Part shown: in pieces, positions 20,146 to 42,348 of the stretch
Layout of the letters: every line of letters begins with the position of its first letter
How positions within the stretch are numbered: position 1 is the first letter of the stretch
From: an uncultured Bacteroidales bacterium
Lineage (GTDB): Bacteria > Bacteroidota > Bacteroidia > Bacteroidales > B18-G4
DNA length: 64,000 bases
Direction of reading: 5' to 3'
NCBI GenBank assembly: GCA_963753835.1
Contig: CAVWDP010000002.1
Span: forward strand, 99,495-163,494
Notes under the pieces: model-generated
What the model saw: the letters and a program-made list of their open reading frames with translations, nothing else
Databases searched by the model: none
Told to the model about the DNA's origin: nothing
Program-made: the position numbers and the translations under genes

Positions 20146-20190
20146 TGAGGTGCATTTAGATTTATTTCAGAATAGTTCCCAGAGCATGAA

Positions 20191-26362: not shown

Positions 26363-27061
26363 ATGAAGCAGGAAAATAGTGGCCCTGTTCGCAGCACCAA
26401 CACTTTTACTGATTTTAAGTACTATCTTTTTCACAAGCCACCTTTCAAGACATTGGTAGAACAGACTAATTCTGATGCCAGGGTTAGTCTGGGCAAAAGT
26501 ATCCTACAACGAACCGGTATAGATGTAGAAAGTTACAAGATGCTCAATCTTCACAGGGTAGGCATAGAAACTCCCGCCAGCTATGTATTTGATGAGTTGT
26601 TGGCATGGAGCGGTAACTCCATTTGTTGGCCTAACCATATTGCAAGGGTAGATTTGCAGGACAACAAACTGGAACAGATAAAAATATACCTTTTCGGGGT
26701 TACGAAACGATTTTTGGGTACAAACCTGTTTCACCTATTTGACTTGAGTGCCATACGCATACAAAAGGTTCCGGCAGACTCAGATTTTGATAATGCCAGG
26801 TATCTGCTTTATGAGTGCAAGGGAGGATACCCGATTGGTGTCTTTTCTATATACGTTAGGTCGTCTATTCCCGATAGGGGAGAAACAGAAATGTCGCAAC
26901 TTTTCATGATGGTGAGCTTTAACTTTTATGGTAAGAAAAGAAAAAGACGAACCCTCTTTAACCGGATATGGGAAAGAATCCATAACAGGGTAACATCCAA
27001 TGTTCTTTATCGTTTCAAGCGATTATGTGAATGGAAGTTCGAAAATTTTGTTAACGAATAG
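26363..27061 (+). CDS. Hypothetical protein
   Basis: 232-aa ORF with ordinary amino-acid composition. No motif recognised. Confidence 0.45.
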   Translation: MKQENSGPVRSTNTFTDFKYYLFHKPPFKTLVEQTNSDARVSLGKSILQRTGIDVESYKMLNLHRVGIETPASYVFDELLAWSGNSICWPNHIARVDLQDNKLEQIKIYLFGVTKRFLGTNLFHLFDLSAIRIQKVPADSDFDNARYLLYECKGGYPIGVFSIYVRSSIPDRGETEMSQLFMMVSFNFYGKKRKRRTLFNRIWERIHNRVTSNVLYRFKRLCEWKFENFVNE

Positions 27062-27192: not shown

Positions 27193-27266
27193 TCCTCTTT
27201 AGCTCAGTTGGTTAGAGCATCTGACTGTTAATCAGAGGGTCCTTGGTTCGAGTCCAAGAAGAGGAG
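27193..27266 (+). tRNA. tRNA-Asn (anticodon GTT)
   Basis: Cloverleaf read by hand: acceptor TCCTCTT/AAGAGGA, D-arm GCTC..GAGC, anticodon stem TCTGA/TCAGA with loop CTGTTAA, T-arm CTTGG-TTCGAGT-CCAAG, discriminator G. No encoded CCA. Confidence 0.9.
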
Positions 27267-27690
27267 CGGTAAAAAAGGGGCGCACGTTGTGCAGCCCCTT
27301 TTTTGATATGTGAAATCTGAACTCTGATATTTGAAGTTTGAAGTTTCTGCTCCGCCAGTTGAGTGCACCTGTCATCCTGCATCGCCCGCTGTAGCTTTAG
27401 CGAAAGCGGGAGAGTTGCGGAGCGAGCGTAGCAAGTGACGAGGGACCCCCATCAATTAAGCTCCAAGCCGTCAAAAGCCAAATTTCAATAAAACTCCAAA
27501 CTGTCAAGTTCCAAATTCATCCAACACTCAACACTCAACATCCAACACCTTTATGTATCAAGGCTTTCGGGAGCTGCAACTCTTCATTTAAAAAAATCGG
27601 TGATTTTGGGGGGAGTTGCAGCTTTTTTATGTACCGATCCCTCCCCTGTTTTTAGACCCCCAAACAATCGTTCCATTATTTGGTCCCCAA
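27267..27690 (+). repeat. Modular intergenic repeat, copy 1 (T-A-B-C-F plus extra hairpins)
   Basis: Terminator hairpin, then a GATAT/GAAGTTT tract, then CTGCTCCGCCAGTTGAGTGCACCT and GTCATCCTGCATCGCCCGCT..AGCGGG..GAGGGACCCCCATCA. An AAACTCCAAACTGTCAAG tract follows, then the GAGCTGCAACTC..GAGTTGCAGC hairpin. Confidence 0.85.
27271..27306 (+). terminator. Terminator hairpin after tRNA-Asn (T module of the repeat family)
   Basis: AAAAAA-GGGGCGCAC-GTT-GTGCAGCCCC-TTTTTTTT. Confidence 0.65.
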
Positions 27691-27710
27691 CCCATAGTTG
27701 ACTTCCCCTC

Positions 27711-27769
27711 CCACTTTTCGTATTTTTATAAAAATCAATAAACCGCGCCATAGCAGCGGCCGTTATCGG
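27711..27769 (+). repeat. Upstream module J (gene-oriented), copy in front of 27789 CDS
   Basis: CTTTTCGTATTTTTATAAAAATCAATAAACCGCGCCATAGCAGCGGCCGTTATCGG matches the reverse complement of the left part of 45151-45285. It ends 20 nt before the ATG. Confidence 0.65.
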
Positions 27770-27788
27770 TTAGTGCTAAAAATCTACT

Positions 27789-28769
27789 ATGAGAATTTTC
27801 TTTTTATTTCTATTCATCAATCTATACCTGGCTGCTTCTAGTCAGGTTATAAAGGGAACCATTTTTGAGAAGAAAACAAACAATATCATTTGCTTTGCAA
27901 CAATCTATTTTAATGGAACCTTTGTTGGTACTTTATCAGATCAAAATGGAAATTTCGAGTTGTATATCTCGAAAGAAAATAGATCAATGCCATTAACAGT
28001 AAGTTGTATAGGTTACTATTCTGTTACTCTTACTGATTTTTCTATTACTGAACCGTTGATAATTTATTTGGAACCCCAGTTATATGAATTAAAAGATGTT
28101 ATTATTAGTGGTAAATCTCTGGAAAGGAAGAGAAGAAGAAATTTAAGATTGTTTAGAAAAGAATTTATTGGCACTACTGCCAATGCGCATGGATGTAATA
28201 TATTGAATGAAAATGATATTACCTTCAACTATGATTCTGATGATGATACGGTGAAGGCATATGCGTTGAAACCAATTTTGATTGAGAATACGGCATTAGG
28301 ATACAAAATCACTTATTTCCTAGATAGATTTGAATATTATAAAAAAACTCAAGCTACTTTTTTTAGTGGGAATTTTATATTCATTAAGGATCTTAATGAT
28401 GATGAAGCACAGACTCAATTTTATAAAAGCAGAAGAGAACACACCTATTTAGGATCAAGAATGCACTTTTTCAGAGTACTTTGGTCTGGGCAGTTAGATT
28501 CTTCAGGATTTATAGTTAGAAGTCCATCGTATGACACTCTCAATCTTGACACAATCGTATTTCAAGATGATAAACAAAATAAATTTCTTGGATTCACCTC
28601 TAACATATTAATAGAATATAACAACAGTAAAAGCACTATTGAATTTGTTCAGGAGTTTGTTTATTTTGATGAATCGGGATTATTCAGTCCCGGGATTAAA
28701 TGGAGTGGTGAGATGGCTCGACAGCGAATTGCAGACTGGCTTCCATATGAATATTCAATCGAGCAGTAA
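27789..28769 (+). CDS. CarboxypepD_reg-like domain secreted protein
   Basis: 326 aa with a signal peptide. N-terminal VIKGTIFEKKTNNIICFATIYFNGTFVGTLSDQNGNFEL is typical of the carboxypeptidase-regulatory-like fold. Visibly AT-rich. Confidence 0.6.
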   Translation: MRIFFLFLFINLYLAASSQVIKGTIFEKKTNNIICFATIYFNGTFVGTLSDQNGNFELYISKENRSMPLTVSCIGYYSVTLTDFSITEPLIIYLEPQLYELKDVIISGKSLERKRRRNLRLFRKEFIGTTANAHGCNILNENDITFNYDSDDDTVKAYALKPILIENTALGYKITYFLDRFEYYKKTQATFFSGNFIFIKDLNDDEAQTQFYKSRREHTYLGSRMHFFRVLWSGQLDSSGFIVRSPSYDTLNLDTIVFQDDKQNKFLGFTSNILIEYNNSKSTIEFVQEFVYFDESGLFSPGIKWSGEMARQRIADWLPYEYSIEQ

Positions 28770-28973
28770 CAACCCAAACAATAAATAAAAACCATACGCC
28801 TCTTATTCAGACAGTTGTGCGTTTTTTTTAGAAATACCATTTTTTTCAGACCTTATGTAATATGTATTGAAAGTATTTTTATAAAGTTGAAGAACCTAGA
28901 CATAATAGAAGACAAAAGCAGTTATTGTATTAGATATAGTATTCCTCTGTTCTCTTATTATCTTTTAAGACCT

Positions 28974-29003
28974 GACCTCACAGGTTCAAGAACCTGTGAG
29001 GTC
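28974..29003. terminator. Perfect 11-bp hairpin (possible terminator)
   Basis: GACCTCACAGG-TTCAAGAA-CCTGTGAGGTC. The T-run is weak. It is followed by further GC hairpin modules up to 29190 (GCCATAGCTTCAGCG / CGCTAAAGCTATGGC inverted pair). Confidence 0.4.
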
Positions 29004-29192
29004 TCTTTGGCTGCAACTTCCGCCCCACCTTCGTCCCGAGTGCTCGGAACTCCGGCGGGTAAAAAAGAAACCACCTCCGCCAACCGCGTGTCGCCATAGC
29101 TTCAGCGGTGGCACAGGCTACGGCGGTTGTAAAGGGAGCAACAAAAAAGGGCCACCCCACCGTCGCTAAAGCTATGGCGGGCAAAGGCGAGT

Positions 29193-29495
29193 CCCTTTTT
29201 TGATACTCGATACTTGATACTTGATATTTGAAGTTTTCTGATCAGCCAGTTAAGTACTACCGGTCATCCTGCATCGCCCGCCGAAACCTTGGTGGAGGCG
29301 GGAGAGCAGCATCGCGAAGCGATGCAAAGGAAGGGACCTGTTGGCGGCTAGCACCTCCCTATCAAAAAGCACCCCTTCTATTAAACTCCAAACTGTCAAA
29401 CACCAAATTTCAAAAAAACTCCAAACTGTCAAATTGCAAATTCCAAACTAATCCAACACTATATTCCCCATCCATTATCCATAAATCATCATTCG
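29193..29495 (+). repeat. Modular intergenic repeat, copy 2 (A-B-C-E-F)
   Basis: CCCTTTTTT, then the GATACTCGATACTTGATACTTGATATTTGAAGTTT tract, then TCTGATCAGCCAGTTAAGTACTACCG and GTCATCCTGCATCGCCCGCCGAAACCTTGGTGGAGGCGGG. GCATCGCGAAGCGATGC, GGGACC, CTGTTGGCGG and the AAACTCC.. tract follow. Confidence 0.9.
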
Positions 29496-29616
29496 TAGTT
29501 TTTCTACGTTAGGCGGTAAAATCCCGTTGGTTTTAAAATCGATTGTTATTTAATTTTATACTGTTATAAATTGTTCCGGGTAAGCTTTTTGCTTTCGCAA
29601 GGATATAAAATTAAAT

Positions 29617-30948
29617 ATGATGAAAAAGCTATTCGTGCTTTCGATCATTAGCCTTATGATGATCTCTGTGAATTTTGGTCAGAAGCCTTCGATAGACCTC
29701 TCGTTTACTTCTGTTAATGATACTGCCTGGATTCAGATGGACAGTATCAGGTTGGTCAACCGCACCCTGGGAGGTGATACCGTGTTGTATTATCCCGATA
29801 CAGTGCTGTCTGTAAATTATGTCGGTATTTCTGAAATTTCAAATAAGATGAAAGGATTTCAGGTTTTCCAGAACTATCCCAACCCCGTTACAAACCAGAC
29901 CAAGATTACCATGTTCGTGCCTGAAAAGGACAACATTAGCGTGATTGTTGCAGACATGTTGGGAAGGATTATATTAAAATCTAGCAGGACTCTAGATAAA
30001 GGGATGCATGCCTTCAGATTCACACCCGGAGGTGGAAATCTATATTTTTTCACGGCACAATGGAGGGGAAACAATAGCAGTATTAAGATCCTGCAGGCAG
30101 GGGGTAATCCAGGAGGCTCGAAATCACTTGAATACATAGGCGGTGAGTACACATCTCCACAGACAATGATAAAGAAAACTATTCAGGGATTTGTTTTCAA
30201 CCCCGGTGATGAACTGCTGTACATCGGTTATGCCGGTGGTTTGCAGTCCGGCTTTCTTGACAAGCCGGAGGAAAGCCATGCTTATGCCTTCCAATTTGCC
30301 ACAAATATCCCCTGCCCGGGAACACCCTTGGTGGAATACGAAGGGAAGGTGTATAATACCATTCAAATTTTCAGCCAATGCTGGCTGAAAGAAAACCTGA
30401 ATGTTGGAATAATGATTAATGGAATGGTAGAAATGACGGACAATGGAATTATAGAGAAATACTGTTATTATAATGATACAAACAGATGTAATCAATACGG
30501 CGGTCTTTACCAGTGGGATGAGATGATGACATATTCCACACAATCAGGAGCCCAGGGAATTTGCCCCCCTGACTGGCATTTGCCTTCGGATGAGGAATGG
30601 AAGGTGTTGGAGGGGGCAGTAGACAGTCTATATGAAATTGGAGATCCAATATGGAACCTTTATGGGCTCAGGGGTTTTAATGCAGGAACTAATCTTAAGT
30701 CAACGACCGGATGGTCAGGTATTGGCAATGGTTCCGGTCTGTTTATGTTTGCAGGTCTGCCAGGAGGTTATCGTTACAGCGATGGTTATTTCTATTATAC
30801 CAACCTTCATGCTCTATGGTGGTCATCAACTGATGGTAATGCAACGAGCGCATGGAATCGTTATCTCAGCTATAATAATCCGATAGTGGATCGTGACTTT
30901 GGCAACAACAAGGGATTCGGTTTCAGTGTCCGCTGTATCAAAGATTGA
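29617..30948 (+). CDS. Secreted protein with internal T9SS-sorting-like domain and C-terminal FISUMP (Fibrobacter succinogenes major paralogous) domain
   Basis: 443 aa. Residues around 83-160 read FQNYPNPVTNQTKITMF...GMHAFRF...NLYFFTA...SIKIL (CTD-like). The C-terminal part reads CWLKENLNVG...YGGLYQWDEMM...CPPDWHLPSDEEW...GFGFSVRCIKD. Confidence 0.7.
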   Translation: MMKKLFVLSIISLMMISVNFGQKPSIDLSFTSVNDTAWIQMDSIRLVNRTLGGDTVLYYPDTVLSVNYVGISEISNKMKGFQVFQNYPNPVTNQTKITMFVPEKDNISVIVADMLGRIILKSSRTLDKGMHAFRFTPGGGNLYFFTAQWRGNNSSIKILQAGGNPGGSKSLEYIGGEYTSPQTMIKKTIQGFVFNPGDELLYIGYAGGLQSGFLDKPEESHAYAFQFATNIPCPGTPLVEYEGKVYNTIQIFSQCWLKENLNVGIMINGMVEMTDNGIIEKYCYYNDTNRCNQYGGLYQWDEMMTYSTQSGAQGICPPDWHLPSDEEWKVLEGAVDSLYEIGDPIWNLYGLRGFNAGTNLKSTTGWSGIGNGSGLFMFAGLPGGYRYSDGYFYYTNLHALWWSSTDGNATSAWNRYLSYNNPIVDRDFGNNKGFGFSVRCIKD

Positions 30949-31035
30949 TATCAAATCTTTACACTTGCTCTGTCGCCACCATATTAATTTAGTTATTTAT
31001 TTCTGGTTTAAATATGACATAAGTATAGTGCGAGG

Positions 31036-31355
31036 CCCTTTTTTGATATCTGATACTCGATACTTGATACTTGATATTTGAAGTTTTCTGATCAGCCAGT
31101 TAAGTACTACCGGTCATCCTGCATCGCCCGCCGAAACCTTGGTGGAGGCGGGAGAGCCGCAGCGCGAAGCGATGCAAAGGAGGGAACTGTTGGCGGTTAG
31201 CACCTCCCTATCATAAAGCACCCCTTCACTAAACTCCAAACTGTCAAACTCCAAATTAATCCAACACTCACTTCGTCCGCCGAAGTTTTAACGAAGGCGG
31301 AACACCCAACACTTTCCCGCGAATGCGGGAAAAACGGTGGTTTATTTGGTCAAGG
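31036..31355 (+). repeat. Modular intergenic repeat, copy 3 (A-B-C-E-F-G)
   Basis: Near-identical to copy 2 through A-B-C-E. It then has hairpins TCCGCCGAAGTTTTAACGAAGGCGGA and TTCCCGCGAATGCGGGAA, followed by GGTGGTTTATTTGGTCA. Confidence 0.9.
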
Positions 31356-31501
31356 GGTGAAATCTTATTCAGTTTAACGTTTGGTGTAAGAAGAGTAGCC
31401 GAAAGCGGAAGTAAAAACTTTCAGTTTACTGCAAATTTTATGCGGGCTGCAATGTTCATATTTAATACAATCTCGGCTATTATTTTTATACTTTGTTGTG
31501 C

Positions 31502-32570
31502 TTAGTACTTGTTCAATTTTTTGTCCTTTTTGTAATTTTTTATCATTTTCCCAAAATCCTTGTCTTTCTTACGTTTTTCAGCAACAGTCGATTCAAAATG
31601 TTCTTTTTCCCGTTCCATTTTCAAGTAGTTTTCATAGGACGATTTATCTATTTCTCCACTTTCTACGCTTGCTATAACTGCACAGTCAATTTCTGTTGTA
31701 TGTGTGCAATCTTTAAATTTGCAATCTTTGGATAGTTCTACTATTGTTTCAAATGTAATTTCTAATCCATCTGTTGAATCTGCAATCCCAACTTCTCTCA
31801 TTCCAGGATTGTCAATTAAAATCCCTCCATTTTCGAGAACCAACAATTCACGGTGACTTGTAACGTGTCGTCCTTTGTTTGTACTTGTACTAATTGTGTT
31901 TGTTTTCATAAATTGTTTACCTGAAAGATTGTTCACAAGAGTTGATTTTCCTACTCCTGATGAACCTAACAAGCAGTAAGTTTTACCTTTTATGATACTT
32001 ATCTTTTAGTCTATCGATTCCTATTAGGGTTTCATTGCTTATAGTAATTACAGGTACTTGCTTAATTCTATCTTGAACATTAGCAATCAACTTTGTTAAT
32101 TCTCTATCTTCTATCAGGTCAATCTTGTTGAGAATGATAATTGGTTTTACGTTGGATGTATTGCAAATAGTCAGGTACCTTTCTATTCGGTTGATGTTAA
32201 AATCCCTGTCAACTGCTTGTACAATAAAAGCAAAGTCAATATTTGTTGCTATAATTTGTTTTTCGCCTTGTTTGCCAACTGCTTGTCTTTCAATGATGGT
32301 ATTTCTTGGAAAAATGGAATGAATAAGTACTTTATCTTCATCATATTCAGAAATTGCAACCCAGTCACCAACAGCAGGGAAATCAGACCTTTTATGTGCC
32401 GAAAATCTTAAATTTCCGATTATTTCAGCATCATATTCATTTTCGGTAGTTTTTACAACGTATCTTTCCTTGTGTTCGGAAATAACTCGTCCCACTCCAA
32501 ATGAATCAAGATTTTGGTCCTTTCGGTAATTTTCCAATTCTATATTATATCCTAAATCTTCAAGTGTCAT
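31502..32570 (-). pseudogene. rsgA: Ribosome small-subunit-dependent GTPase A, frame break in an A4 run
   Basis: ORF 31983..32570 (OB-fold N-terminus and circularly permuted G4 NKIDL) and ORF 31502..31972 (GSSGVGKST, DNPG, C-terminal Cys cluster CKFKDCTH..C). The frame carrying GKTYCLLGSSGVGKS is reached by one A fewer/more at 31988-31991. AT-rich. Confidence 0.8.
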
Positions 32571-32593
32571 TTCTTTTCTCCTGTATTAAGCAC

Positions 32594-33238
32594 AACTTGT
32601 TTATTGATTCACCTTTATTATCATTATATGTCTAAATTGGGGTTGTAATGGTAATGATATGTGCTATTATGTTTCAAAATCCTCTATTGGGGTTTTGACT
32701 TAATTAAACAGCTTATCAGTAAAGATAAAAAATATTGGTGCTGCAACTTCCACCAAAAAAGAGGAGCGGTAAAAAAGGGGCGCACGTTGTGCAGCCCCTT
32801 TTTTGATATCTGATATCTGATATTTGAAGTTTGAAGTTTCTGCTCCGCCAGTTGAGCGCACCTGTCATCCTGCATCGCCCGCTGTAGCTTTAGCGAAAGC
32901 GGGAGAGTTGCGGAGCGAGCGTAGCAAGTGACGAGGGACCCCCATCAGTTTTGCACCTCGCTATCATGCAGCACCTCTTCTATTAAACTCCAAACTGTCA
33001 AACACAAAATTTCAAAAAAATACCAAACTGTCAAACTCCAAATTCCAAATTAATCCATCACTATATTCCCCATCCATCATCCACTGTGTCCTCTGTAGCT
33101 ATCCGCGAGCGCAGAAGCTACTCAGCGGAGGCGCTAGCGAAAGAGGATAATTCATCATCCATAATTATTTCCGCGAATGCGGAAATCCCGCCCCGGTTGC
33201 CTGGGACCGGAATAAAATCGTTCCTTTATTTGGTCACG
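32594..33238 (+). repeat. Modular intergenic repeat, copy 4 (165-bp AT-rich leader, tRNA 3-prime-like fragment, T-A-B-C-E-F, extra multi-stem module, G)
   Basis: 32594-32870 and 32933-33062 are identical to 37751-38027 and 38048-38177. 32759-32935 is nearly identical to 27259-27455. Extra module TCCTCTGTAGCT..AGCTAC..AGAGGA at 33089-33147. Confidence 0.9.
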
Positions 33239-33371
33239 TTTTGAAATCTAATTCTGTTTTAACGGTCGAGGGTATGTGACGTAAGGGATTGCGGAGCAGT
33301 TTCCTGTCCGCTGATACAAAAGTTTGAGTGGGCTACAATCCTTGAAATAATTGCTATCACAGCTATTATTT

Positions 33372-34459
33372 TTATACATTGTTAGGTGGAGTTTTTTCTT
33401 CGTCTTGTGTATTTAATCTGTCGATTATATTATATTTCGCCTGTCTTTTCTTCCACCTATCCCTTGCATATTTTTGCATGTCAACTATGGTATCGGTTTC
33501 ATCAATTATTTCAAGACCTAGCAAAGTTTCAATAATATCTTCCATTGTTACAATTCCGTCAAAACCACCATATTCATCTACAATTAATGCAATATGTTCT
33601 TTTTTTTCCAATAGTTTTTCCCACAAAGCAAAAAGTTCTATACTATATGGAACAATAACTATCTCTCGTTTAATATCTTTCAGTTTTAATTCATGTTGGT
33701 CTTCGGCTAGTTTTTCAAAAACTTCCTGCCTAAAAACATATCCTGTTATGTTTTCTTCATTTTCTGAATATATAGGAATACGTGAAAATTTTAGATAATC
33801 TTTATTCTTAAAAAAATCTTTTAAGGATAATTTCTCATCGGCAACAGCAACAACAACTCTTGGGGTCATAATTTCTGCTACTTTCACATTTTTGAGCCGA
33901 AGTAAATTTTGAATTATTTTATGTTCATTATTTGAAAAAACACCTTCATCTGCTCCTATATTTGCTAATGCTGCAATTTCCTCTCGGCTAGTAGTTTGCT
34001 CTTGTCTGTTTTTTGAATAAGTTTCGTAATGACTGCTGACATTACAACCAATGGATAGGTAATAATTATCATACCTTGTATAATTCGAGAAGAAATCATG
34101 GCTAGATTTCGCCAATATCTGGCTCCAATTGTTTTTGGAATAATTTCGGTAATTACTAGAATTAAAATTGTTAAAATAGCTGATATAATTCCAAAAGAAG
34201 CTTCACCAAATACTTTAACTGCTTGTGCTCCAACTCCAGCGGCACCAACTGTATGTGCTACGGTATTTAATGATAAAATTGCAGATAAAGGCTTGTCAAT
34301 ATTGGTTTTTAAATCAACAAATGATTTTGCCCAGGTATTTCCTTCTTCATGCTTAACAATCAAGAAGGATTGTGGTGTTGAAAGAAGCACGGCTTCCATT
34401 ATAGAACAAAGAAATGAAACAACAAGAGCAAGAAATAAATAGAATAAAAGTAATATCAT
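33372..34459 (-). pseudogene. CNNM/CorC-HlyC family protein (DUF21 TM domain plus CBS pair), frame break in a 6-nt homopolymer
   Basis: ORF 33965..34459 (DUF21-like TM helices) and ORF 33372..34115 (SREEIAAL...IMTPR, CBS pair, DEYGG..GIVTMEDIIE). The frames join at the T6 run at 34009-34014. The last about 8 codons and the stop lie in sequence shared with the rsgA 3-prime flank. Confidence 0.75.
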
Positions 34460-34661
34460 GTATTTTCTTTCAAAATTACGACAGTATGAATTAATTTAGG
34501 ATGATGTCTTCGTTAAAATACCACCTAGCGGTTCTAATATGGGGCGTTGGGCATTTTGAAACACCTACCTATCAAACCGCAATATGTTTTATTAAATGTT
34601 CTCATTTTCAATTTTGCCAATCCGCCCAATGACCTATATTTATTGTTATCAACAGAATGTG

Positions 34662-35816
34662 CTATTTCTGTTGATTTAACCAAATTTCATTAGAGTATTC
34701 ATTGGAACCACCATCAAAATTTGAAATAAAAACATCATTAATCCCATCATTATTAAGATCTTTAATTATAGGACGCTGAAAAAGATTTTTGCTTCCGATT
34801 ATAGAATCACTCTCTGTAAAATTCCCATTTCCATCATTATACCAGATTCTGTTTGCTTCGCCTAAACTTGTAATAAATAGATCTAATGAGCCATCACCAT
34901 TTAAATCTCCTATCCCAATTCTTCCAAAAATAGCAGGAGATAGTTTTTGTTCACTATAAGTAAATATCCCTTTTCCATTGTTTAATAATATTTTCGAGGG
35001 AGTACTAAAATTACGGGTGCCATTTGTTAATATGATATCCAAATCGTTATCATTATCTATATCTCCGGATACAAAAGAACCATAAATTATTGTAGTGTCT
35101 TTCATAGTCCAATATTTCATAAAGTTCCCCCCATCATTAATTAGAGATTCGAAACCACTTCCTACTTGTCTGGAGAATATATCCATATCCCCATCATTAT
35201 CCACATCAAGAAGCAGTGGATTTTTAGGAATTGTAACGTCACTTTTGGTGAATTCTCCATTTCCATTATTCAAATACAAAATATTTGCTGCCGAATTGTA
35301 TTCTATTATGGCGTCAATATCTCCATCGGAATCCATATCAGCTAATTGTATTGCATTACCACTAAACTTTTCATCGCCAAGGTTTTGCTTGCTATCATAA
35401 AACTGCCCCTTACCGTTGTTAAAATAAATTTTGCTAGGGATTTCATTATATTTTTCTTCATTTTCGCTTTTATAACCCGCACATACAATAAATATATCAG
35501 GACTGCCATCACCATTTAAGTCATCAATACCAACACCATGACCCTGTTGAGTGAGTTTTTGACCGGAATCTGTAAAGTTACCATTCCCATCATTGAACAA
35601 TATTTGACTATGATTATATCCCATATTGGCGCACACGGCATCTAAATCCCCATCCATATCCAAATCCTCAAGTCCAATTTGATAGGTGCTTTTCTTATGT
35701 GAATATTGGTTGTTTTTTTTGAGATTAACAATGGTCTTTTGGGCATAAATACTATTCAAACAACTGCATGCCATAATAGAATAAATCAATAGATTTTTAA
35801 GTGAATTTACTACCAT
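34662..35816 (-). CDS. FG-GAP/VCBS repeat (CRTAC1/ASPIC-like) secreted protein
   Basis: 384 aa with at least 7 repeats carrying DxDxDGDxD calcium-binding loops (DLDMDGDLDAV, DDLNGDGSPDIF, ADMDSDGDIDAI, GDLNGDGSLDLF...). AT-rich. Confidence 0.8.
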   Translation of the reverse strand: MVVNSLKNLLIYSIMACSCLNSIYAQKTIVNLKKNNQYSHKKSTYQIGLEDLDMDGDLDAVCANMGYNHSQILFNDGNGNFTDSGQKLTQQGHGVGIDDLNGDGSPDIFIVCAGYKSENEEKYNEIPSKIYFNNGKGQFYDSKQNLGDEKFSGNAIQLADMDSDGDIDAIIEYNSAANILYLNNGNGEFTKSDVTIPKNPLLLDVDNDGDMDIFSRQVGSGFESLINDGGNFMKYWTMKDTTIIYGSFVSGDIDNDNDLDIILTNGTRNFSTPSKILLNNGKGIFTYSEQKLSPAIFGRIGIGDLNGDGSLDLFITSLGEANRIWYNDGNGNFTESDSIIGSKNLFQRPIIKDLNNDGINDVFISNFDGGSNEYSNEIWLNQQK

Positions 35817-35838
35817 GTTTATTTCCTTTTATTTTGTT

Positions 35839-35858
35839 GATAACGGATGGGGCTATGA
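35839..35858 (-). promoter_or_regulatory. CATAGC-N6-CCGTTATC motif upstream of FG-GAP gene
   Basis: The minus strand reads TCATAGCCCCATCCGTTATCAAC, 22 nt upstream of the ATG at 35816. Related to GCCATAGCAGCGGCCGTTATCGG (27747) and GCCATAGCAGCGGCCGTTGGC (revcomp of 45151). Confidence 0.4.
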
Positions 35859-36134
35859 AGCGTCCCGAGTCCTCGGGATGCGATATTAGCCTGTGTTATG
35901 TTTAGTATTTATTCTAAATTCCCTTTTAATCAAACTTCATTTTATTTATTTCAAATAAATAGGTAGTCTGTAAATTTACTCACTTATTCTTTTTACTACA
36001 GACGAATTCAATGTATTTTTATGGTTTTATATCAATCTCCAGCTGATATAATGCCGTAAGAAGAATGACAGGAAGGCCCCGATTGATTTAGACTGTGATT
36101 CCTGAAATGCTTTTAAGTCAACAATAAATGGGTT

Positions 36135-37119
36135 TTACCTGATTACAAACTGTGAGGTCAGTACACCATCATCAGTGTAGAATACAACTGTGTACACACC
36201 ACTTTTCAAGTCAGATGTATTTATCGTTACGTTAAAGTTGCTTATCTCAATAGCTTCGACTAGTTTTCCGGTGACATCGATTATCTCAATCCTGTTAACA
36301 TCAGATAATTCATTTATATTCAACTTGTCCGCTTGCGGGGTTCGGATAAATAACATATTCAGCCCTTGTTTTGGATTCAAAAATACCGGGAATACAGTAC
36401 ACCCCAGACATCATTCACTGTCATCCATGTTGTATCAATAACAGTTATCATGCGATTTCCACTAACAAGTTCTTCACCATTGTCCCAGCTGGGTTCATTG
36501 TTAATAATACGGTAATATTTATATTCATAATCACCTTGATATAAATACAGACCGTGGGTATAAATATAGTCATCGACTTCACCAAATGGAGCCATCTTGT
36601 ATTGGGGGATAGTACCTGGCATAGCCCAATTATTGGCCAGGCTTCCTGCAATATATAGAAATTCTATCGCCGGATTGAAACCCTCCACTTCCATCAAATC
36701 AATCCAAAAATATACTGCTACAGGTTTATCACTCCAGTAATCACTATAAATTGATTTCTTCCGTAAGGATGATGTCTACGGTTGGGGTCACCCTCCCATT
36801 CATCATTATCCCAACTTGCTTCGCCGTTGATAACACGAAAATATTTATACAAGATCTCCCCAGAATCCACTTCCACGCGTAAGTTCATAAACATTTAGGT
36901 CCAATCCGAGTATTAATTTATAGGTCGGATCATCGCCGGGTTTCTCCCAATCAGTAAATGTACCAGAGATATATACTTCATCTGTTGTCGGATTAAATTC
37001 TTCGGATTCACTCATGTCGACTTTAAAAGTGACTGTAAAATTAGTTTGTCCAAATGCAACAGATCCCAGTAAGCAAAACAGACAAAAGTGTAAAAATAGT
37101 TAACGTAGTATGTTTTCAT
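36135..37119 (-). pseudogene. Degraded T9SS cargo gene (tandem carbohydrate-binding-like domains plus CTD), multiple frame breaks/stops
   Basis: ATG at 37119 gives an N-terminal hydrophobic stretch. Fragments 36377..36697 (YEYKYYRIINNEPSWDNGE) and 36135..36380 (CTD ...LKSGVYTVVFYTDDGVLTSQFVIR) are in different frames. 36700-37100 has a second copy of the domain broken by stops. Confidence 0.65.
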
Positions 37120-37384
37120 AATGCATAGTTTTTACTCCATAAAGATAATCAAGAAAAATGCAAAATGTACCATAGTAAGTAATCAAATAATGAGACTATT
37201 TCGAACTATCCCATTAAACAGGGTTGTCAGGTAAATTCTTTTATTGAAATACGTTATGATTTGTGGTAACTTTTTAAACCAATCACAACAGTTTTTATGA
37301 TTGGAATATCTTACTGAATATCTATAAACTATTCTCCAGCCTGTGAATACATCCCAATTCTATTATGTAAATAGGCATATTAAA

Positions 37385-37531
37385 CATAACGTTTGGCGGC
37401 TATGCAGCGTGCGGCCATTTTCGGCCGCATTGCTAAAATTACGAAAATATCTGGCGCATGCGGTATGAGGAGCTGTTATGGAAGCGTAGGACCGCCTGCG
37501 GGCCATGCGCCAAGGTATTGGCGCAGAATTT
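37385..37531 (-). repeat. Upstream module J, copy (about 265 nt upstream of the degraded gene start at 37119)
   Basis: Shares AAAATTACGAAAATATCT, GTTATGGAAGCGTAGGACCGCC and GCGCCAAGGTATTGGCGCAGAATTT with 45151-45285. The left end CATAACGTTTGGCGGCTATGC carries the CATAGC..GTTAT motif. Confidence 0.7.
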
Positions 37532-37750
37532 GACCTCTCGCCCCCATGGGCGAAATGCCTCTCCGCAGACTTGAAATTGGCACAACATTTCGCCCTAAAT
37601 TCTGTGCCAATACCGGGTAGGATCAGCTTTGGGATTATTGGCTTGCACGATGGCACGATTGTGCGATATTCGATTTCCGAAGGAATCAAAAACCTGCTAC
37701 AATTATTTGCAAAGGAAGATTTGGAATGTTAGGGTGGGGCTATGTTCTAT

Positions 37751-38275
37751 AACTTGTTTATTGATTCACCTTTATTATCATTATATGTCTAAATTGGGGT
37801 TGTAATGGTAATGATATGTGCTATTATGTTTCAAAATCCTCTATTGGGGTTTTGACTTAATTAAACAGCTTATCAGTAAAGATAAAAAATATTGGTGCTG
37901 CAACTTCCACCAAAAAAGAGGAGCGGTAAAAAAGGGGCGCACGTTGTGCAGCCCCTTTTTTGATATCTGATATCTGATATTTGAAGTTTGAAGTTTCTGC
38001 TCCGCCAGTTGAGCGCACCTGTCATCCCGAACCCCGAGTACTCGGGGGAGGGACCCCCATCAGTTTTGCACCTCGCTATCATGCAGCACCTCTTCTATTA
38101 AACTCCAAACTGTCAAACACAAAATTTCAAAAAAATACCAAACTGTCAAACTCCAAATTCCAAATTAATCCATCACTCACTTCGTCCGCCGAAGTTTTAA
38201 CGAAGGCGGAACACCCAACACCTTTTTCCGCTATGGCGGGGAAAACCGGTGGTTTATTCGGTAAGGGCTGGGGGC
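37751..38275 (+). repeat. Modular intergenic repeat, copy 5 (leader, tRNA 3-prime-like fragment, T-A-B-short C-E-F-G)
   Basis: Perfect duplicate of copy 4, except that the 62-nt C insert is replaced by the 20-nt CGAACCCCGAGTACTCGGGG and the sequence diverges after TAATCCATCACT. Confidence 0.9.
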
Positions 38276-39047: not shown

Positions 39048-39134
39048 TGAGTGTAGTGCTTAATTATATCTAATGTGTTTATATGTACCCCATTGGTAAC
39101 CATACATACCAATATAGGCTGGATAAAAACACGT

Positions 39135-39440
39135 TTATTAGTAAAGATATAAAATTTCTATTCTGCAACTTCCACCCCCAAAGGGGCTGCACAAGGTGCG
39201 CCCCTTTTTTGATATTTGAAATCTGATCCTTCGACTTCGCTCAGGACAGGTTATCTGATATTTGAAGTTTGAAGTTTCTGTTCCGCCAGTTAATTGCACT
39301 TGTCATCCCGATCCTGAGTACTCGGGAGAGGGACCTGCTGGCGTTTGCACCTCCCCATTAAAAAGCACCATTTCCCCGTCCCTTGCCCCTCGTACCCCGC
39401 ACCCCATCCATCATCCATAATTCATAATCCATAATTATTT
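39135..39440 (+). repeat. Modular intergenic repeat, copy 6 (T hairpin inverted, A with CCTTCGACTTCGCTCAGGACAGG insert, B, short C, E)
   Basis: CTGCAACTTCCACC is followed by GGGGCTGCACAAGGTGCGCCCC, which is the reverse complement of the copy 1 hairpin. Then TTTTTTGATATTTG..., GTCATCCCGATCCTGAGTACTCGGGAGAGGGACC and CTGCTGGCGTTTGCACCTCC. Confidence 0.85.
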
Positions 39441-39498: not shown

Positions 39499-40237
39499 CT
39501 ATTTTATTTGAAAAAATATTTTTTTAAACCTTTGAGGAAGTTCATCTTTTAGATGGACTATTTCATTTGTAAACGGATGTATAAATTTTAAAGAATAGGC
39601 ATGTAAATACAATCCTTTTCCGTTTAAAATTAAATTTTCAATTCCATATTCTTTATCTCCCAATATCGGATTTCCGATACGTGACAGATGTATGCGTAAC
39701 TGATGTCTTCTCCCGGTTTTAGGTTTTAATTTCACCAGGTTGAGTTTGCCGAATTTTTTTGAGGGAACGGTTTTGATTAGTGTATAATTCTGATCGTGAT
39801 TTCTTGCCGTCGATTGTTGAAATGATTTTTCCCCGATGTTCCATTTCACCAATAGTAATGGCATAATAGGTTTTCTTAATCTCATTGTCTTCAAACATTT
39901 TATTTAAAGCACGAATGCTACTCCTCGTTTTCCCAACCAATAAAATACCTGTGGTTGGATAATCTAATCGGTGAACAGCTTGTGGTGTTGTAGCATCAGG
40001 AAGATTACTTTGTTTGATGTTTTGAGCCAAGGCATTGGCAATGGTTTTAAAACTATTTCCGCTCACCAAAATACCTGCAGGTTTATGAATCACGGCTAAG
40101 TGATTGTCTTCAAATAATACTTCAAGTGGAAAGACCAGTTTTTTCTTAGGACTGACCTCTTCTGGAATGGATAAGCTAATGGTTTCACCACCATTTATAA
40201 AAGTAGCGGAAGTAGCAATAACATTATTAACCGTCAC
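39499..40237 (-). pseudogene. RluA-family pseudouridine synthase with S4-like N-terminus, frame break and no usable start codon
   Basis: ORF 39719..40237 (HRLDYPTTGILLVGKT) and ORF 39499..39894 (TGRRHQLRIHL) are in different frames, joining near 39800. The N-terminal S4-like frame is open to 40385 without ATG, GTG or TTG. Confidence 0.7.
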
Positions 40238-40432
40238 ATACTGTTTCTTTAATACTTTCTTTAAGGCTGATTTGGTTAAAGCGGCATTAAAAATACCTAC
40301 ACCATACTCTTGAAGTCGAATAGGAGTAGTTAGTTTTGGAACAATATGGGTTTCACTTGCGTTGATGACGTTTTTTCTATATATGCCAACTTGTTTAAAT
40401 GTGATTCACTCAAATATACAAAAGTTTAATTG

Positions 40433-40676
40433 GTCCTTTTTGAAATCTGAAATCTGATATTTGAAATTTGATATTTGAAGTTTTCTGCTCCGCTGGTTAA
40501 GATCTACCGGTCATCTTGCCTCGCCCGCCGAAACCTTGGTGAAGGCGGGAGAGCCGTAGAGCTTTTCCACCTTCGCTAACGCCTCCGCTGAGTAGCTTCA
40601 GCGCTCGCGGAAAGCTACGGTGGATGATAGATGCGGAGGAAGGACCTCCTGGCGATTCGCAGAGCATCAGTTTAAT
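40433..40676 (+). repeat. Modular intergenic repeat, copy 7 (A-B-C, inverted multi-stem module, E)
   Basis: GAAATCTGAAATCTGATATTTG..., CTGCTCCGCTGGTTAAGATCTACCG and GTCATCTTGCCTCGCCCGCCGAAACC. 40566-40624 is the reverse complement of the module at 33089-33147 (about 52/59 by eye). Confidence 0.85.
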
Positions 40677-40743
40677 GTACTTCCAGCGTATTGCAGAACC
40701 TTGGCAGAAAGTCCACCATTAGTATAATATCACAGGAATAATT

Positions 40744-42315
40744 CTATTCAAGAAATACTTTAGTAGGTGTGCCGGACCATGAGCGTCTCTGGAACATGGT
40801 CATCTCATAAGGCACTAAGCCCTCTTGAACTACCCTGTCCTGAAATTCCAGAATGTCATTGAAGTTGATCTCACAATAATGCCTGTGCCAGTCCTGTATC
40901 ATGCAAACTAACTGAAACAGGTAATTTTTGTTGCCAAAGTCTTCGTATTTGTTTTTAAGATCAGGATGCTCCCGCAGCATGCTGTTTGCCTTGGAGCCAG
41001 GAAAAGGGATCAGGGTTCCCCACTCAAACCTGTCAAAGTTGTCAAATTCTGTAAGTTTCTTTAGAAATCCAATTGTTCTTTCCAGGCTTTCTTTGCTTTC
41101 ACCCTGTACCCCGACTACAACACCAGCTATCACACCAATCCTGTATTTCTGCAACAACTTCATGGCTCTTAGATTATCCTCGATCTTTGCTCTTTTATTC
41201 ATGCTTTCCAGCATTTTAGGATCGCCTGATTCCATACCAACAAAGACACTGACACATCCAGACTCAGCAAGTAAGCTGGCAGTTTCCTCATCTATGTTTT
41301 CGGCATCAACATAATTGGTGTAAGGGATATTTAATCGCTTTGGTTTTGCCGCACAGAAAGCCTTGAACCACTCTTTGTCTCCTACAAGGTTATCAGACGG
41401 ATCCCAGATGAAATCTGCCTGGTATTTCTCGACCAGGGATGAAATCTCATCCCAGACCAGCTTAGGCTTCCTAAGCCGCAGATCATAATAAGGAACTGAG
41501 CAGAATACACAGCCGCCTTCTTCCTGTGAGCGCCACATGCATCCTTTCTGGGAATAAATGTTCATGGGTCTCTTAAATGGATCACAGATCGGATATGCAG
41601 GATCTTTACTGTTCTTAAAATACACTTCCATATCCAGGAGATCCCTGTCTGGTGGTGGAAGCTTGTCAAGACATGGCAGCTTTACAGGATTTTCCCTGAT
41701 CTCATGATTGTCGCGATAAACAAGATTCTCTATTGAACCTAATGGTTCATCGGCAACATACTTTGAAAAAGCTATCTCGCCATCATATCTGATCACAGCA
41801 TCTACAAAGTCATAGTATTTTAAGATCTCCTTTGCAAGTGGAGTGGCAGCAGCTCCTCCCAGGATTACCCTTGCACCTTTTTGCTTTGCAATTTCAGCCA
41901 CTTTAATAGCATGATCATAACCACCGGCTGTTGTTGAAATACCCACAACATCAGCATCAAGCTTGTCAATCACCTGATCTAGGGTGAGAACATTGTTTCC
42001 ATCAAGAATCTCTACCTCAACACCAGGATTATTCTGCCTGATGTAAGTCCCTACAGATACAATGCCCAGCGGCTGAGGCCATCGTGCAAATTTGGCTATA
42101 TATTTATCTTGTTTCTCAGGCTGATGCGGAATCAGACCATTAAGCATAGTGGCAAACATGTCACTGGATACAGCCCTCTCAGCCAGCCAGAAGATAAATT
42201 CCCGGGCATAGCGAGCAAAAGGCTGAGGCAATGTTGCAAATTTGGTAGTAATCGTATCTGGCCTTCTGGGAGGAGGAAGAACCAACTGGACCTTTTCTAT
42301 ATTCTTGTATCTCAT
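40744..42315 (-). CDS. B12-binding-domain radical SAM protein (class B), orphan
   Basis: 523 aa with a Rossmann-like cobalamin-binding region (VVGISTTAGGYDHAIKVAEIAK..ILGG) followed by a radical SAM core. The Cys triad is spaced GCMWRSQEEGGCVFC (CX9CX2C rather than CX3CX2C). Host-like composition. Confidence 0.7.
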   Translation of the reverse strand: MRYKNIEKVQLVLPPPRRPDTITTKFATLPQPFARYAREFIFWLAERAVSSDMFATMLNGLIPHQPEKQDKYIAKFARWPQPLGIVSVGTYIRQNNPGVEVEILDGNNVLTLDQVIDKLDADVVGISTTAGGYDHAIKVAEIAKQKGARVILGGAAATPLAKEILKYYDFVDAVIRYDGEIAFSKYVADEPLGSIENLVYRDNHEIRENPVKLPCLDKLPPPDRDLLDMEVYFKNSKDPAYPICDPFKRPMNIYSQKGCMWRSQEEGGCVFCSVPYYDLRLRKPKLVWDEISSLVEKYQADFIWDPSDNLVGDKEWFKAFCAAKPKRLNIPYTNYVDAENIDEETASLLAESGCVSVFVGMESGDPKMLESMNKRAKIEDNLRAMKLLQKYRIGVIAGVVVGVQGESKESLERTIGFLKKLTEFDNFDRFEWGTLIPFPGSKANSMLREHPDLKNKYEDFGNKNYLFQLVCMIQDWHRHYCEINFNDILEFQDRVVQEGLVPYEMTMFQRRSWSGTPTKVFLE

Positions 42316-42348
42316 TTGCTCTAAGAGAATATACTAGATTCTAGAAAC

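Follow-up and report, generated by a model that had tools for sequence, protein, structure and literature searches.

The sequence that recurs at 32.76 and 37.92 kb of the window, i.e., of the whole 64-kb stretch analysed here from a 1.47-Mb source contig, is best read as the junction module that forms the left end of a composite intergenic repeat specific to this lineage. Such modules are, with a probability of about one half, the att-like junctions of a cassette array made by recombination at tRNA-Asn-type sites and then homogenised by gene conversion. The array, whose limits are those seen locally in this window, comprises approximately 13 co-oriented repeat units between one- or two-gene segments at 27.3-51.5 kb, with tRNA-Asn at its head (Table 1). 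The repeat copies occupy the intergenic gaps of this region and are confined to it within the window: both the 27 kb preceding the tRNA and the 12.5 kb that follow 51.5 kb are free of repeats and modules. The genes between the copies are mutually unrelated, as judged by ORFs and Pfam, and the G+C content is lower in 28-39 kb.

Table 1. Coordinates of the features of the tRNA-Asn array in the window.
Feature	Position	Strand	Parts and basis
tRNA-Asn (GTT), head of array	27193-27266/7	+	ARAGORN; Rfam RF00005, 72 bits
tRNA 3' end, CCAAGAAGAGGAGC	27254-27267	+	Sequence
Whole array	27268-51483	+	Self-BLAST, motif scans, ORFs, Pfam, lower G+C
Terminator-like hairpin t1	27271-27304	+	A6, GGGGCGCAC-GTT-GTGC(A)GCCCC, T6; sequence
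Repeat body of unit 1	27305-27548	+	Self-BLAST family; repeat families D3-D8
Hairpin AGCTGCAACTC..GAGTTGCAGCT, then T run	27573-27623	.	Motif scan
Interrupted module	29010-29205	+	M0 29010-29021; core-like AAAGGGAGC 29131-29139; then hairpin and T run; split by small palindromes; motif scan
Junction module d1	32594-32804	+	Leftward promoter-like piece 32594-32739; M0 32740-32751; triplet ACC; core AAAAAAGAGGAGC 32755-32767; hairpin t1 32771-32804
Repeat body of d1	32805-33062	+	
Junction module d2, identical to d1	37751-37961	+	M0 37897-37908; core 37912-37924; hairpin t1 37928-37961
Repeat body of d2	37962-38177	+	Central hairpin replaced by CCCCGAGTACTCGGGG
Partial module d3	39127-39215	+	Promoter-like piece; TCTGCAACTTCC 39162-39173; without core; t1 hairpin in inverted sequence orientation; repeat family D9
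Degenerate terminal module d4, AAGAGAACAGCATTAAAGGGGCGTACCTAGTGCAGCCCCTTCTTGAT..	51382-51482	+	Body truncated; adjoins 3' end of 774-aa gene
Other repeat bodies	~29190-29480, 31028-31390, 39216-39420, 40430-40680, 42349-42630, 43697-44010, 45477-45595, 47396-47500, 49794-50030		

The module is built of GCTGCAACTTCC (M0), a conserved 12-nt non-tRNA motif, three variable nucleotides, the core AAGAAG(A/G)GGAGC and a terminator-like hairpin, and it usually precedes a mosaic repeat body of 250-400 nt as the head of the composite repeat. The core, directly 5' of which M0 always stands, is a 12-14-nt copy of the T-stem/acceptor 3' strand of tRNA-Asn; at 32.76 and 37.92 kb the match covers the final 11-13 nt of the tRNA. 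The stretch mimicked is CCAAGAAGAGGAGC (the T-stem 3' strand, the acceptor 3' strand, the discriminator and one more base), and this 14-mer is found identically at module sites of the related contigs L047, L059 and L066. At the head of the array, the 3' end of tRNA-Asn itself stands in the core position, at the same distance from the hairpin as the core, and is followed by the same hairpin and body. The t1 hairpin has 28 instances on 22 metagenome contigs. The body of unit 1 runs in the order of heptad repeats, a CTGCTCCGCCAG..GTCATCC box, nested hairpins, a GGGACC box and A/C-rich heptads; the hairpin at 27573-27623 bears the GCTGCAACT motif on both strands and also comes after t2-type modules in L047, L048, L051 and L068.

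The first-pass annotation had reported a recurrence of the tRNA-Asn 3' end and its flank at 32.76 and 37.92 kb, and this was confirmed by alignments and by a scan with the 22-mer AGAGGAGCGGTAAAAAAGGGGC, which has exactly three exact matches, at 27260, 32760 and 37917 of the + strand, against an expectation of none from 100 shuffles. The stretch 27256-27545 aligns with 32756-33041 at 84.6% over 293 nt, the two differing by a heptad indel of 7 nt and a small number of SNPs, and with 37913-38179 at 73.8%, the latter value being due to a swapped central hairpin. The string TGGTGCTGCAACTTCCACCAAAAAAGAGGAGCGG, described upstream of both distal copies, is present there. The distal copies are identical to one another over 277 nt (32594-32870 and 37751-38027) and over a further 130 nt (32933-33062 and 38048-38177), and the earlier reading had not recorded that this identity already begins 165 nt before the tRNA-like piece. 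Three more copies had been missed as well, an interrupted one at 29010-29205, whose uninterrupted homologue lies at L040 12545, a partial one at 39162-39215 and a degenerate one at 51382-51482; most repeat units in the window are without M0-core. The earlier caveat that the match might be no more than the left end of the repeat was, as a description, correct.

Taken over the window and 11 related uncultured Bacteroidales contigs with two or more sites each, M0 has 49 matches, 41 of them unique. All but one (48/49) are of the junction type and share one direction within each contig, whatever the direction of the genes, and the sole match in reverse belongs to the hairpin at 27573-27623, as its partner arm; with the sum of (n-1) of about 25, the chance of such co-orientation is about 2^-25. 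In the window, in L040 and in L068 this direction is also that of the tRNA, and wherever a contig has a tRNA the sites lie downstream of tRNA-Asn and are dense there, with no module or repeat in approximately 43 kb upstream of tRNA-Asn in L039, L040, L043 and L068. At least six hairpin types are joined to the core, varying in sequence while a hairpin is nearly always present, as would be expected if anything landing beside the tRNA had to supply its terminator. The real tRNA-Asn end and M0-core are followed by the same downstream types (t1a in L041, t1b in L040, t6 in L043), and the t2 behind the tRNA-Asn end in L068 is found also at the M0-core site L048 3494. The module with its tRNA-like core occurs in several other species-level lineages, and the 27-nt M0-core is strongly conserved across species while all around it changes, which suggests selection on the block itself.

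Related strains share the sequence up to a module and differ beyond it. In four independent pairs the left flank, M0 and the triplet are 100% identical and the divergence is complete after ..GGAGC, with a SNP inside the core in three of the four. A 4.3-kb segment between two cores in L040 is missing from L056, and L040 and L041, 95.5% identical over the 10.9 kb up to the tRNA and hairpin, are unrelated further on. The window shares its rSAM segment (40715-42348) with L046 at 95.7% identity, in a setting of different neighbours. For the TPR gene, the identity of L040 and L043 is 92%, against 77% in the flanks, and homology sets in 120-200 nt before the gene instead of at a core; at longer divergence the cassettes do not keep the left hairpin and body. 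The t1 and t4 hairpins are exchanged in otherwise identical contexts of L040 and L056. The precision of the breakpoints is no proof of a site-specific enzyme, because the same breakpoint would result if the 27-nt block had served for homologous recombination or gene conversion.

tRNA-Asn is a real integration target in the related strain L053 (98% identical to L040), where a 22-nt copy of its 3' end, starting at the T-loop, is separated by 170 nt from the N-terminus of an integrase, which has an Arm-DNA-bind_5 domain; the fragment of a second integrase is nearby, and an IS21 lies between the two. The left arm of that element is unlike M0, and the relatives of the second integrase adjoin mnmE, not a tRNA. 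The absence of an integrase from the locus, claimed in the first-pass annotation, held for the 64-kb window, in which Pfam scans revealed no integrase or transposase and a tblastn search with the L053 integrase fragments, together with Pfam, gave no integrase remnant. No recombinase was found in the 30 array ORFs, out of 55, that were scanned individually, among the first 25 of the 67 families listed when all 55 were scanned together, or in L040.

Under the cassette-array reading, the modules would be att-like sites, and recombination of the tRNA 3' end with M0-core sites would lead to the gain, loss and exchange of small DNA segments. The outcome would be tandem accretion, catalysed in trans, of elements that may afterwards have lost any integration genes, and gene conversion among the copies would produce mosaic, locally identical repeats, such as the 100% pair at 32.6 and 37.75 kb. 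We infer a site-specific, not a homologous, exchange and, as its enzyme, a tyrosine integrase of the Arm-binding type of Bacteroidota. Counted against this reading are the recombinase-free window, the lost left hairpins and bodies, the hairpin-only swaps, the units without M0-core, and the left arm and mnmE context of the L053 element.

The main, though less probable, alternative is an intergenic repeat, mosaic and either selfish or structural, like BIME/REP or MITE sequences, spread and homogenised via gene conversion, local duplication or unknown transposition, in which the tRNA-like 12-14 nt and hairpin would be a fossil of the tRNA-Asn terminator region, incorporated into one module, and not a recombination site. 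It would accommodate the nested modules with free exchange of sub-modules (the d1/d2 central hairpin; t1/t4), the tiny palindromes inserted everywhere, even in a tRNA copy, the many window units that are missing M0-core and the recombinase not found locally. The heptad tracts on the left and right form imperfect inverted repeats of each other, which folds pair (z of -2 to -3), and the likeness of repeat bodies is far greater inside one genome than from genome to genome, a sign of concerted evolution. However, it explains neither why the sites keep so strictly to the downstream side of tRNA-Asn (none in 27 kb upstream in the window or in about 43 kb of upstream flank in four contigs) nor their uniform orientation. 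The conservation of the 27-nt M0-core between species suggests selection on the block, and real and mimic tRNA ends are interchangeable before the same downstream types.

Purely local segmental duplication or recent conversion, with the tRNA likeness derived from one earlier duplication of the tRNA region and no mobile element, is unlikely. The 100% match of 32594-32870 to 37751-38027 includes 146 nt of rsgA-upstream sequence left of M0, and the remaining repeat copies are 62-93% alike, yet the genes between the copies are unrelated and the module and core are found at 41 unique sites, several other species-level lineages included; recent conversion accounts for the identity of d1 and d2, not for the family. 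As a complete explanation it is largely refuted, because the module is conserved across species.

Two classical islands (27.27-32.76 and 32.76-37.92 kb) with their own tRNA-Asn-specific integrases later deleted would match the intact tRNA at one end, the direct repeats of its 3' end, the reduced G+C in 28-39 kb and the targeting of tRNA-Asn in L053, but are highly improbable given that neither Pfam nor tblastn gave an integrase remnant, that the intervals are split by further units (29.0-29.5 and 31.0-31.4 kb) and the interrupted module at 29.01 kb, that modules at 39.16 and 51.38 kb stretch the pattern to 24 kb, that the repeats reach far past an att core on both sides (at least 190 nt beyond the tRNA copy and 165 nt upstream in the distal pair), and that ordinary single genes make up the content (a CarboxypepD_reg-like protein, a Fib_succ_major protein, rsgA, CNNM and an FG-GAP protein). 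Among the related contigs there was none of matching gene order that had, or lacked, precisely these two 5-kb blocks as whole units, and the module proved to be common and almost never beside a tRNA in them. Of the integration at the tRNA proposed initially, the two discrete islands of 5.2-5.5 kb are therefore not supported, while the broader idea, att-type copies of the tRNA 3' end at recombination junctions, is in agreement with M0 upstream, the co-orientation downstream of the tRNA, the strain divergence at modules and the L053 integrase.

Many small repeat-bounded cassettes strung one way behind a tRNA are closest in layout to a tandem accretion of integrase-less elements. The BIME/REP sequences of Enterobacteria are composite extragenic repeats of exchangeable palindromic modules, often near terminators and homogenised within a genome, that are scattered round the chromosome in alternating unit orientation, with no known tRNA anchor or tRNA-derived core. 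The intergenic repeat described here is likewise a mosaic of exchangeable modules, but it is co-oriented, tRNA-anchored and provided with a tRNA-derived core. NBU1 and NBU2 of Bacteroides encode tyrosine integrases with an N-terminal arm-binding domain and insert singly at a tRNA 3' end, via a common core of approximately 13-14 bp, as 10-12-kb elements with int and mob genes. The phylum, the tRNA 3' end and the short common core are thus shared, whereas an array of integrase-less cassettes, as observed here, is not known to be formed by NBUs. Integron arrays and CALINs consist of gene-sized cassettes with co-oriented structured sites of variable sequence and short conserved motifs, a fixed primary anchor site and a recombinase outside the cassettes. 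Gene-sized cassettes, co-oriented sites, a fixed anchor and a recombinase not in the cassettes are common to both. Unlike in integrons, there is no intI and no evident attC-type R''/R' (RYYYAAC/GTTRRRY) pair, the cassette genes face in either direction, a tRNA 3' end takes the place of attI as the anchor, and the inter-cassette elements are 250-500-nt mosaics.

CIMEs and the tandem accretion of ICEs/IMEs at tRNA genes, e.g., Streptococcus ICESt1/ICESt3, keep att sites with the loss of integration genes (PMC5704250). Such arrays usually contain two or three large ICE-derived elements, in contrast to at least a dozen gene-sized units here, which bear no trace of conjugation or integration modules and whose mobility is inferred from comparisons only. 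In the ssrA islands of Dehalococcoides, a high-plasticity region downstream of the tmRNA gene carries tandem co-oriented direct repeats of the small-RNA-gene 3' end, a conserved motif of approximately 15 nt, not alignable to the RNA gene, immediately 5' of each repeat, and strain-specific content between the repeats, with an inferred crossover in or near the T-loop (PMC3146451). The strain-specific content is matched in the present array. Most of these islands are of 10-30 kb with a six-gene integration module and a CcrB-like serine recombinase, and some units without integration genes have been proposed to be cis-mobilizable (PMC3146451). The present units differ in their target, tRNA-Asn, in their size of about 1-5 kb, in having no recombinase in those examined, in the tyrosine type of the only integrase fragments seen nearby, and in the obligatory terminator hairpin and large mosaic repeat that follow each site; they resemble the ssrA islands in the co-oriented repeats of an RNA-gene 3' end, with M0 in the role of the upstream motif.

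The acceptor 3' strand, the discriminator and the downstream sequence of tRNA-Asn are repeated further along the window, as the first-pass annotation had stated for 32.76 and 37.92 kb: the 22-mer AGAGGAGCGGTAAAAAAGGGGC has three exact matches, at 27260, 32760 and 37917, all on the plus strand, with none expected by chance. The copy of the tRNA 3' end is exact over 11-13 nt at 32759 and 37916 and degenerate at 51382, always in the orientation of the tRNA gene. In self-comparison, the tRNA-proximal copy is 84.6% identical to 32756-33041 over 293 nt and 73.8% identical to 37913-38179, while the two distal copies are 100% identical to each other over 277 nt (32594-32870 and 37751-38027) and again over 130 nt, with a swapped central hairpin between these blocks. 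As the 277-nt block begins at 32594 and 37751, the identity of the distal pair reaches 165 nt 5' of the tRNA-like piece, into the rsgA upstream region. The shared sequence is not confined to an att core and continues for at least 190 nt downstream into the body of a repeat; the duplicated sequence is the left end of that repeat, as had been suspected. An exact AAAAAGAGGAGC at 62957-62968 (minus strand), inside a Crp-like gene, is taken as chance because neither the hairpin nor the motif M0 of the repeat lies close by.

Self-comparison of the window gave about 13 copies of one composite repeat in 27.3-51.5 kb, all on the plus strand, which fill essentially every intergenic gap of the array regardless of the direction of the neighbouring genes; self-comparison and motif scans found no copies in the remaining 40 kb. 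The segments between the repeats hold one or two mutually unrelated genes each: a CarboxypepD_reg-like protein, a Fib_succ_major protein, rsgA, a CNNM/CBS protein, an FG-GAP protein, fragments of a type IX secretion substrate, TspO, an RluA-like pseudouridine synthase, a B12-binding radical SAM enzyme, a PIG-L deacetylase, a type IX substrate, a 199-aa protein with thymidylate synthase, a broken type IX substrate, and a Recep_L/LRR type IX substrate. The G+C content of the array (0.32-0.44) is somewhat lower than outside it (0.42-0.47). Three frameshifts lie at or near A runs (rsgA, 31972-31983; CNNM, about 34019; rluA-like, 39719-39894) and may be homopolymer assembly errors rather than decay; in rsgA, the removal of one extra A in AAAA restores ..KGKTYCLLGSSGVGKST.. 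Outside the array, an inverted repeat of about 80 nt (75% identity) joins 20089-20163 and 23549-23631, with a weak heptad-like match on the minus strand in its copy at 23535, and the gene 8357-9547, unrelated to the present finding, encodes ten WG_beta_rep repeats with a strong internal DNA periodicity of about 102 nt.

Each full unit starts with an optional left piece resembling a leftward Bacteroidota promoter (reverse complement TATCTTTAC), followed by M0, three variable bases, the core, three bases, an A run, a G+C-rich stem-loop and a T run. The junction site has the pattern GCTGCAACTTCC-N3-AAGAAGRGGAGC, where M0 is GCTGCAACTTCC and the core, a copy of the tRNA-Asn 3' end, is AAGAAG(A/G)GGAGC; together with the terminator-like hairpin this forms the junction module that heads the repeat body. 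At tRNA-Asn itself the gene's own 3' end (CCAAGAAGAGGAGC) occupies the place of M0 and core, at the same spacing to the same hairpin. Past the T run come GAT with heptad repeats, a CTGCTCCGCCAG..GGTCATCC box, nested small palindromes, a GGGACC box and A/C-rich heptads, then often a hairpin AGCTGCAACTC..GAGTTGCAGCT, and at the right end a rightward promoter-like piece. The heptad direct repeats GATATCT/GATATTT/GAAGTTT lie at 27305-27346, 32805-32839 and 37962-37996, and the A/C-rich tracts at 27455-27548 and 32975-33062 are their imperfect reverse complement across the central hairpins; predicted folds pair the left and right heptad tracts with z of -2 to -3. Neither a target duplication nor a transposase was found for the repeat body, whose heptad tracts form imperfect inverted repeats on its two sides. 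Intergenic heptamer repeats have been reported for Beggiatoaceae genomes (PMC4679880). At the Rfam gathering threshold the tRNA was the sole match, and the other matches obtained with the E-value limit relaxed to 5 lay far below the gathering scores of their families and were taken as chance. Very small G+C-rich palindromes (CCGCC..GGCGG, CCCCGAGTACTCGGGG, TCCACCTTCGC..GGTGGA) have been inserted into the repeat hairpins or have taken their place; in L060, one of the related uncultured Bacteroidales contigs used for comparison (L039-L069), a tRNA-Asn copy has them instead of its anticodon arm and is also interrupted by them in the T-loop. A hammerhead-like or k-turn-like core (CTGAGGAG..CGAAGGACC), suggested by eye in some copies, was rejected, with flanking helices of the wrong topology, A15.1 absent and no support from any tool.

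Coordinates of the tRNA gene, the module copies and the compared sites
Feature	Contig	Position	Strand	Remark
tRNA-Asn(GTT)	window	27193-27266	+	ARAGORN and Rfam; sole tRNA of the window
Interrupted module copy	window	29010-29205	+	
Distal module copy	window	32594-32804	+	
Distal module copy	window	37751-37961	+	
Partial module copy	window	39162-39215	+	hairpin inverted
Degenerate module copy	window	51382-51482	+	
Palindrome insertion site	window	29022-29190		
Palindrome insertion site	window	32871-32932		versus 38028-38047
Palindrome insertion site	L046	2757-2880		
Palindrome insertion site	L060	380-470		
Integrase locus	L053	687-4179		IS21 between two integrase N-terminal fragments facing each other
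IstA of IS21	L053	1290-2831		
IstB of IS21	L053	2844-3593		
Strain pair	L040 versus L047	16899 versus 127		127/127 nt
Strain pair	L040 versus L056	12571 (L040)		
Strain pair	L047 versus L065	1769 versus 126		
Site pair	L050			two sites within the contig

Besides the two full modules, the window thus contains an interrupted (29.01 kb), a partial (39.16 kb) and a degenerate one (51.38 kb). The stretch TGGTGCTGCAACTTCCACCAA had been read as a decayed T-arm. M0, however, shows no variation among its 41 unique sites, is present at 39162 with no core beside it, and forms both arms of a distinct hairpin at 27573-27623. It is therefore regarded as a motif in its own right, one that is a poor match to the T-loop but may be homologous to it. 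The 41 unique sites stem from 49 M0 matches in the window and 11 related multi-copy contigs; all but one (48/49) are of the junction type and co-oriented within their own contig, and the only match in reverse orientation forms the second arm of the hairpin at 27573-27623. At least six kinds of terminator-like hairpin follow the M0-core sites. Too few informative sites were available for placing a crossover by comparing the core variants with the left and right flanks.

Homologues of the gene just upstream of tRNA-Asn gave syntenic contigs. Those in which its protein is 74-84% identical (L039-L044) have tRNA-Asn after the same gene and then the same kind of repeat, and the further modules of L040 at 12545, 16873 and 20262 read GCTGCAACTTCC-NNN-AA(G/C)AAGGGGAGC. 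All three of these, and one module in L068, lie downstream of tRNA-Asn and are co-oriented with it, and upstream of the gene no module or repeat was found in 27 kb of the window and about 43 kb of related contigs. A metagenome scan for the hairpin returned 28 instances on 22 contigs, with an intact tRNA-Asn beside just one and a decayed tRNA-Asn beside another. The 19-mer GTCATCCTGCATCGCCCGC, present in seven window copies, gave 37 single chance matches in unrelated high-G+C genomes of the species-representative collection, from which the repeat family is therefore considered absent; the module was also not found in viral contigs (two patterns) or in phage and plasmid collections, and nothing describing the motif or module was met in Rfam, in these collections or in the literature searched. 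In the array contig L064, two module sites (reverse strand, 2392 and 6591) are identical, and so are the genes that follow them (GFA and DUF1254 proteins), which shows that about 4.2 kb has been duplicated in tandem.

The differences between strains fall at the modules. L040 and L041 are 95.5% identical over 10.9 kb up to the tRNA, the hairpin and TTTTTTGAT and unrelated thereafter, and the switch of repeat subfamily between them starts directly after ..GGAGC. In four independent pairs the left flank, M0 and the triplet are 100% identical and the sequences diverge completely past the core, with a single SNP within the core in three of the four. A 4.3-kb segment of L040 (DUF1538 genes to CNNM) lies between two cores and is absent from L056, and the downstream types t1a, t1b, t2 and t6 occur behind both real tRNA ends and M0-core sites. 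Such module-bounded, strain-specific content was seen in the relatives (L040 versus L041, L047 and L056; L047 versus L065; within L050), and for the window itself in the comparison with L046 only (GenBank metagenome contig LGVF01114964.1): the radical SAM segment at 40715-42348 shares 95.7% identity with L046 1070-2703. This match comprises the B12-binding radical SAM gene and only 15-33 nt on each side; in L046 a different gene lies to its left, and the flanking repeats are of another make-up. L040 has a TPR gene beside its tRNA whose counterpart in L043 is 92% identical, against only 77% for the flanks. On a larger scale, genes for 232-aa (26363-27061) and 774-aa (51484-53808) proteins bracket the tRNA and array in the window and are direct neighbours on one strand in the more distant L067 (10001-13069), L068 and L069 (727-3805). 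In the window the orientation of the 774-aa gene is reversed, in L040 this gene lies 10 kb upstream, and in L068 the tRNA-Asn array lies 6 kb further on; judged by gene order, the chromosome region around the array is much rearranged between relatives. In none of the relatives examined does the sequence found at 38.3 or 51.5 kb come straight after the tRNA.

These observations are taken to suggest, at about even odds (roughly 0.5), that the modules are att-like junctions of a cassette array. A recombination enzyme supplied in trans would exchange the cassettes at these junctions, and the mosaic structure of the repeats and their local identity would stem from gene conversion at a later stage. 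The reading is favoured because the anatomy matches the tandem ssrA islands behind the tmRNA gene of Dehalococcoides and the accretion model with CIMEs, elements that have att sites but lack integration genes. However, no enzyme was found in the sequence searched, the comparison rests on local sequence, homologous recombination would also give divergence at the end of the shared 27-nt block, and over longer divergence the hairpins and bodies exchange independently of the genes.

Tyrosine-type integrase fragments are encountered at tRNA-Asn in the relative L053, which is 98% identical to L040 over the hairpin, the repeat body and the TPR gene. The integrase locus stands there in place of the tRNA-Asn body, and the tRNA is reduced to its last 22 nt, from the T-loop, the classical crossover position, to the end. 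At 170 nt from this piece begins an ORF, interrupted by IS21, whose Arm-DNA-bind_5 domain is the one that forms the N-terminus in tyrosine integrases of Bacteroidota; beyond IS21 lies a second integrase N-terminus (Arm-DNA-bind_5 and Phage_int_SAM_5). This population is accordingly taken to have tRNA-Asn as a genuine target of integration. Two points call for caution: the left arm of the L053 element is unlike M0, and the homologues of the second fragment adjoin mnmE with an HTH_17 gene and no tRNA, and are uninformative on tRNA-Asn. The first fragment has no homologues in the database searched. The sequence GGTGTAA-CTAT-GGTGTAA occurs only at L053 795-812, beside the integrase and 110 nt left of the 22-nt copy, and at L040 12630-12647, 58 nt right of a core at the start of the 4.3-kb segment, and may be an arm-type integrase-binding site.

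The principal rival, judged rather unlikely, is a BIME-like mosaic repeat that carries a fossil tRNA end; it explains the modularity well but leaves the polarity, the clustering behind the tRNA and the conservation of the 27-nt block unexplained. Unlike dispersed REP/BIME or MITE elements, the copies are clustered in 27.3-51.5 kb and co-oriented, with none in the 40 kb of other window sequence. The tRNA-targeted integration proposed by the first-pass annotation is supported in part: the tRNA-end copies are probably of att type and mark a hot spot of recombination, but they were not left behind by two islands with integrases (27.27-32.76 and 32.76-37.92 kb), a simple reading that fails because the modules are common in related contigs at repeat copies unrelated to any tRNA. 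The absence of an integrase noted there was borne out, as Pfam scans of the larger ORFs gave no Phage_integrase, Resolvase, rve or transposase in the window, and tblastn with the L053 integrase fragments gave no match in it. An IS200/IS605-type (PATE) element with a fixed target and replication-linked orientation was also considered but not retained as the principal account, since copies occur on one side of the tRNA only and their hairpins are of differing sequence.

The cassette-array reading may be extended, tentatively and at somewhat less than even odds, to an integron-like gene capture in uncultured sediment Bacteroidales, in which the tRNA-Asn 3' end would be the primary site for recombinase-less, gene-sized cassettes, often of type IX-secreted surface proteins, each with a 27-nt att-like site and its own terminator, and a tyrosine integrase acting in trans, encoded by the chromosome or by an element, would insert, excise and shuffle them into co-oriented arrays of tens of kilobases. 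Should the modules be recombination sites, they would represent a cassette-accumulating system outside the integron paradigm, in which cassettes with one or two genes each dock at a tRNA gene and the enzyme acts in trans, in a poorly known Bacteroidales lineage from sediments; this would account for a hypervariable region rich in secreted surface proteins and would offer a concrete, testable 27-nt site. If they are merely a mosaic repeat, the case is a caution that the duplication of a tRNA end beside the tRNA is alone no evidence of an island. Partial tRNA copies of this kind would be mis-scored as island boundaries by island-finding software, and short-read assemblies break at the repeats, as seen from the many related contigs that end there.

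As compared with a tRNA-targeted genomic island, the array likewise has an intact tRNA at one boundary and a co-oriented direct repeat of its 3' end at the far boundary, but no integrase or remnant was detected, and the boundary identity runs past the att core on both sides. A difference from integrons and CALINs is the lack of an integrase, and inspection of the aligned modules revealed no RYYYAAC..GTTRRRY pair bracketing the inter-cassette elements. With the tandem accretion of ssrA islands and CIMEs the array shares multiple copies of the target 3' end that have one orientation and lie only downstream of the target gene, a conserved foreign motif directly 5' of each copy (here M0), and strain-specific content between the copies, here seen in the relatives, with some units devoid of integration genes. 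The array is best filed as a variant of the tandem accretion array with an integron-like cassette size.
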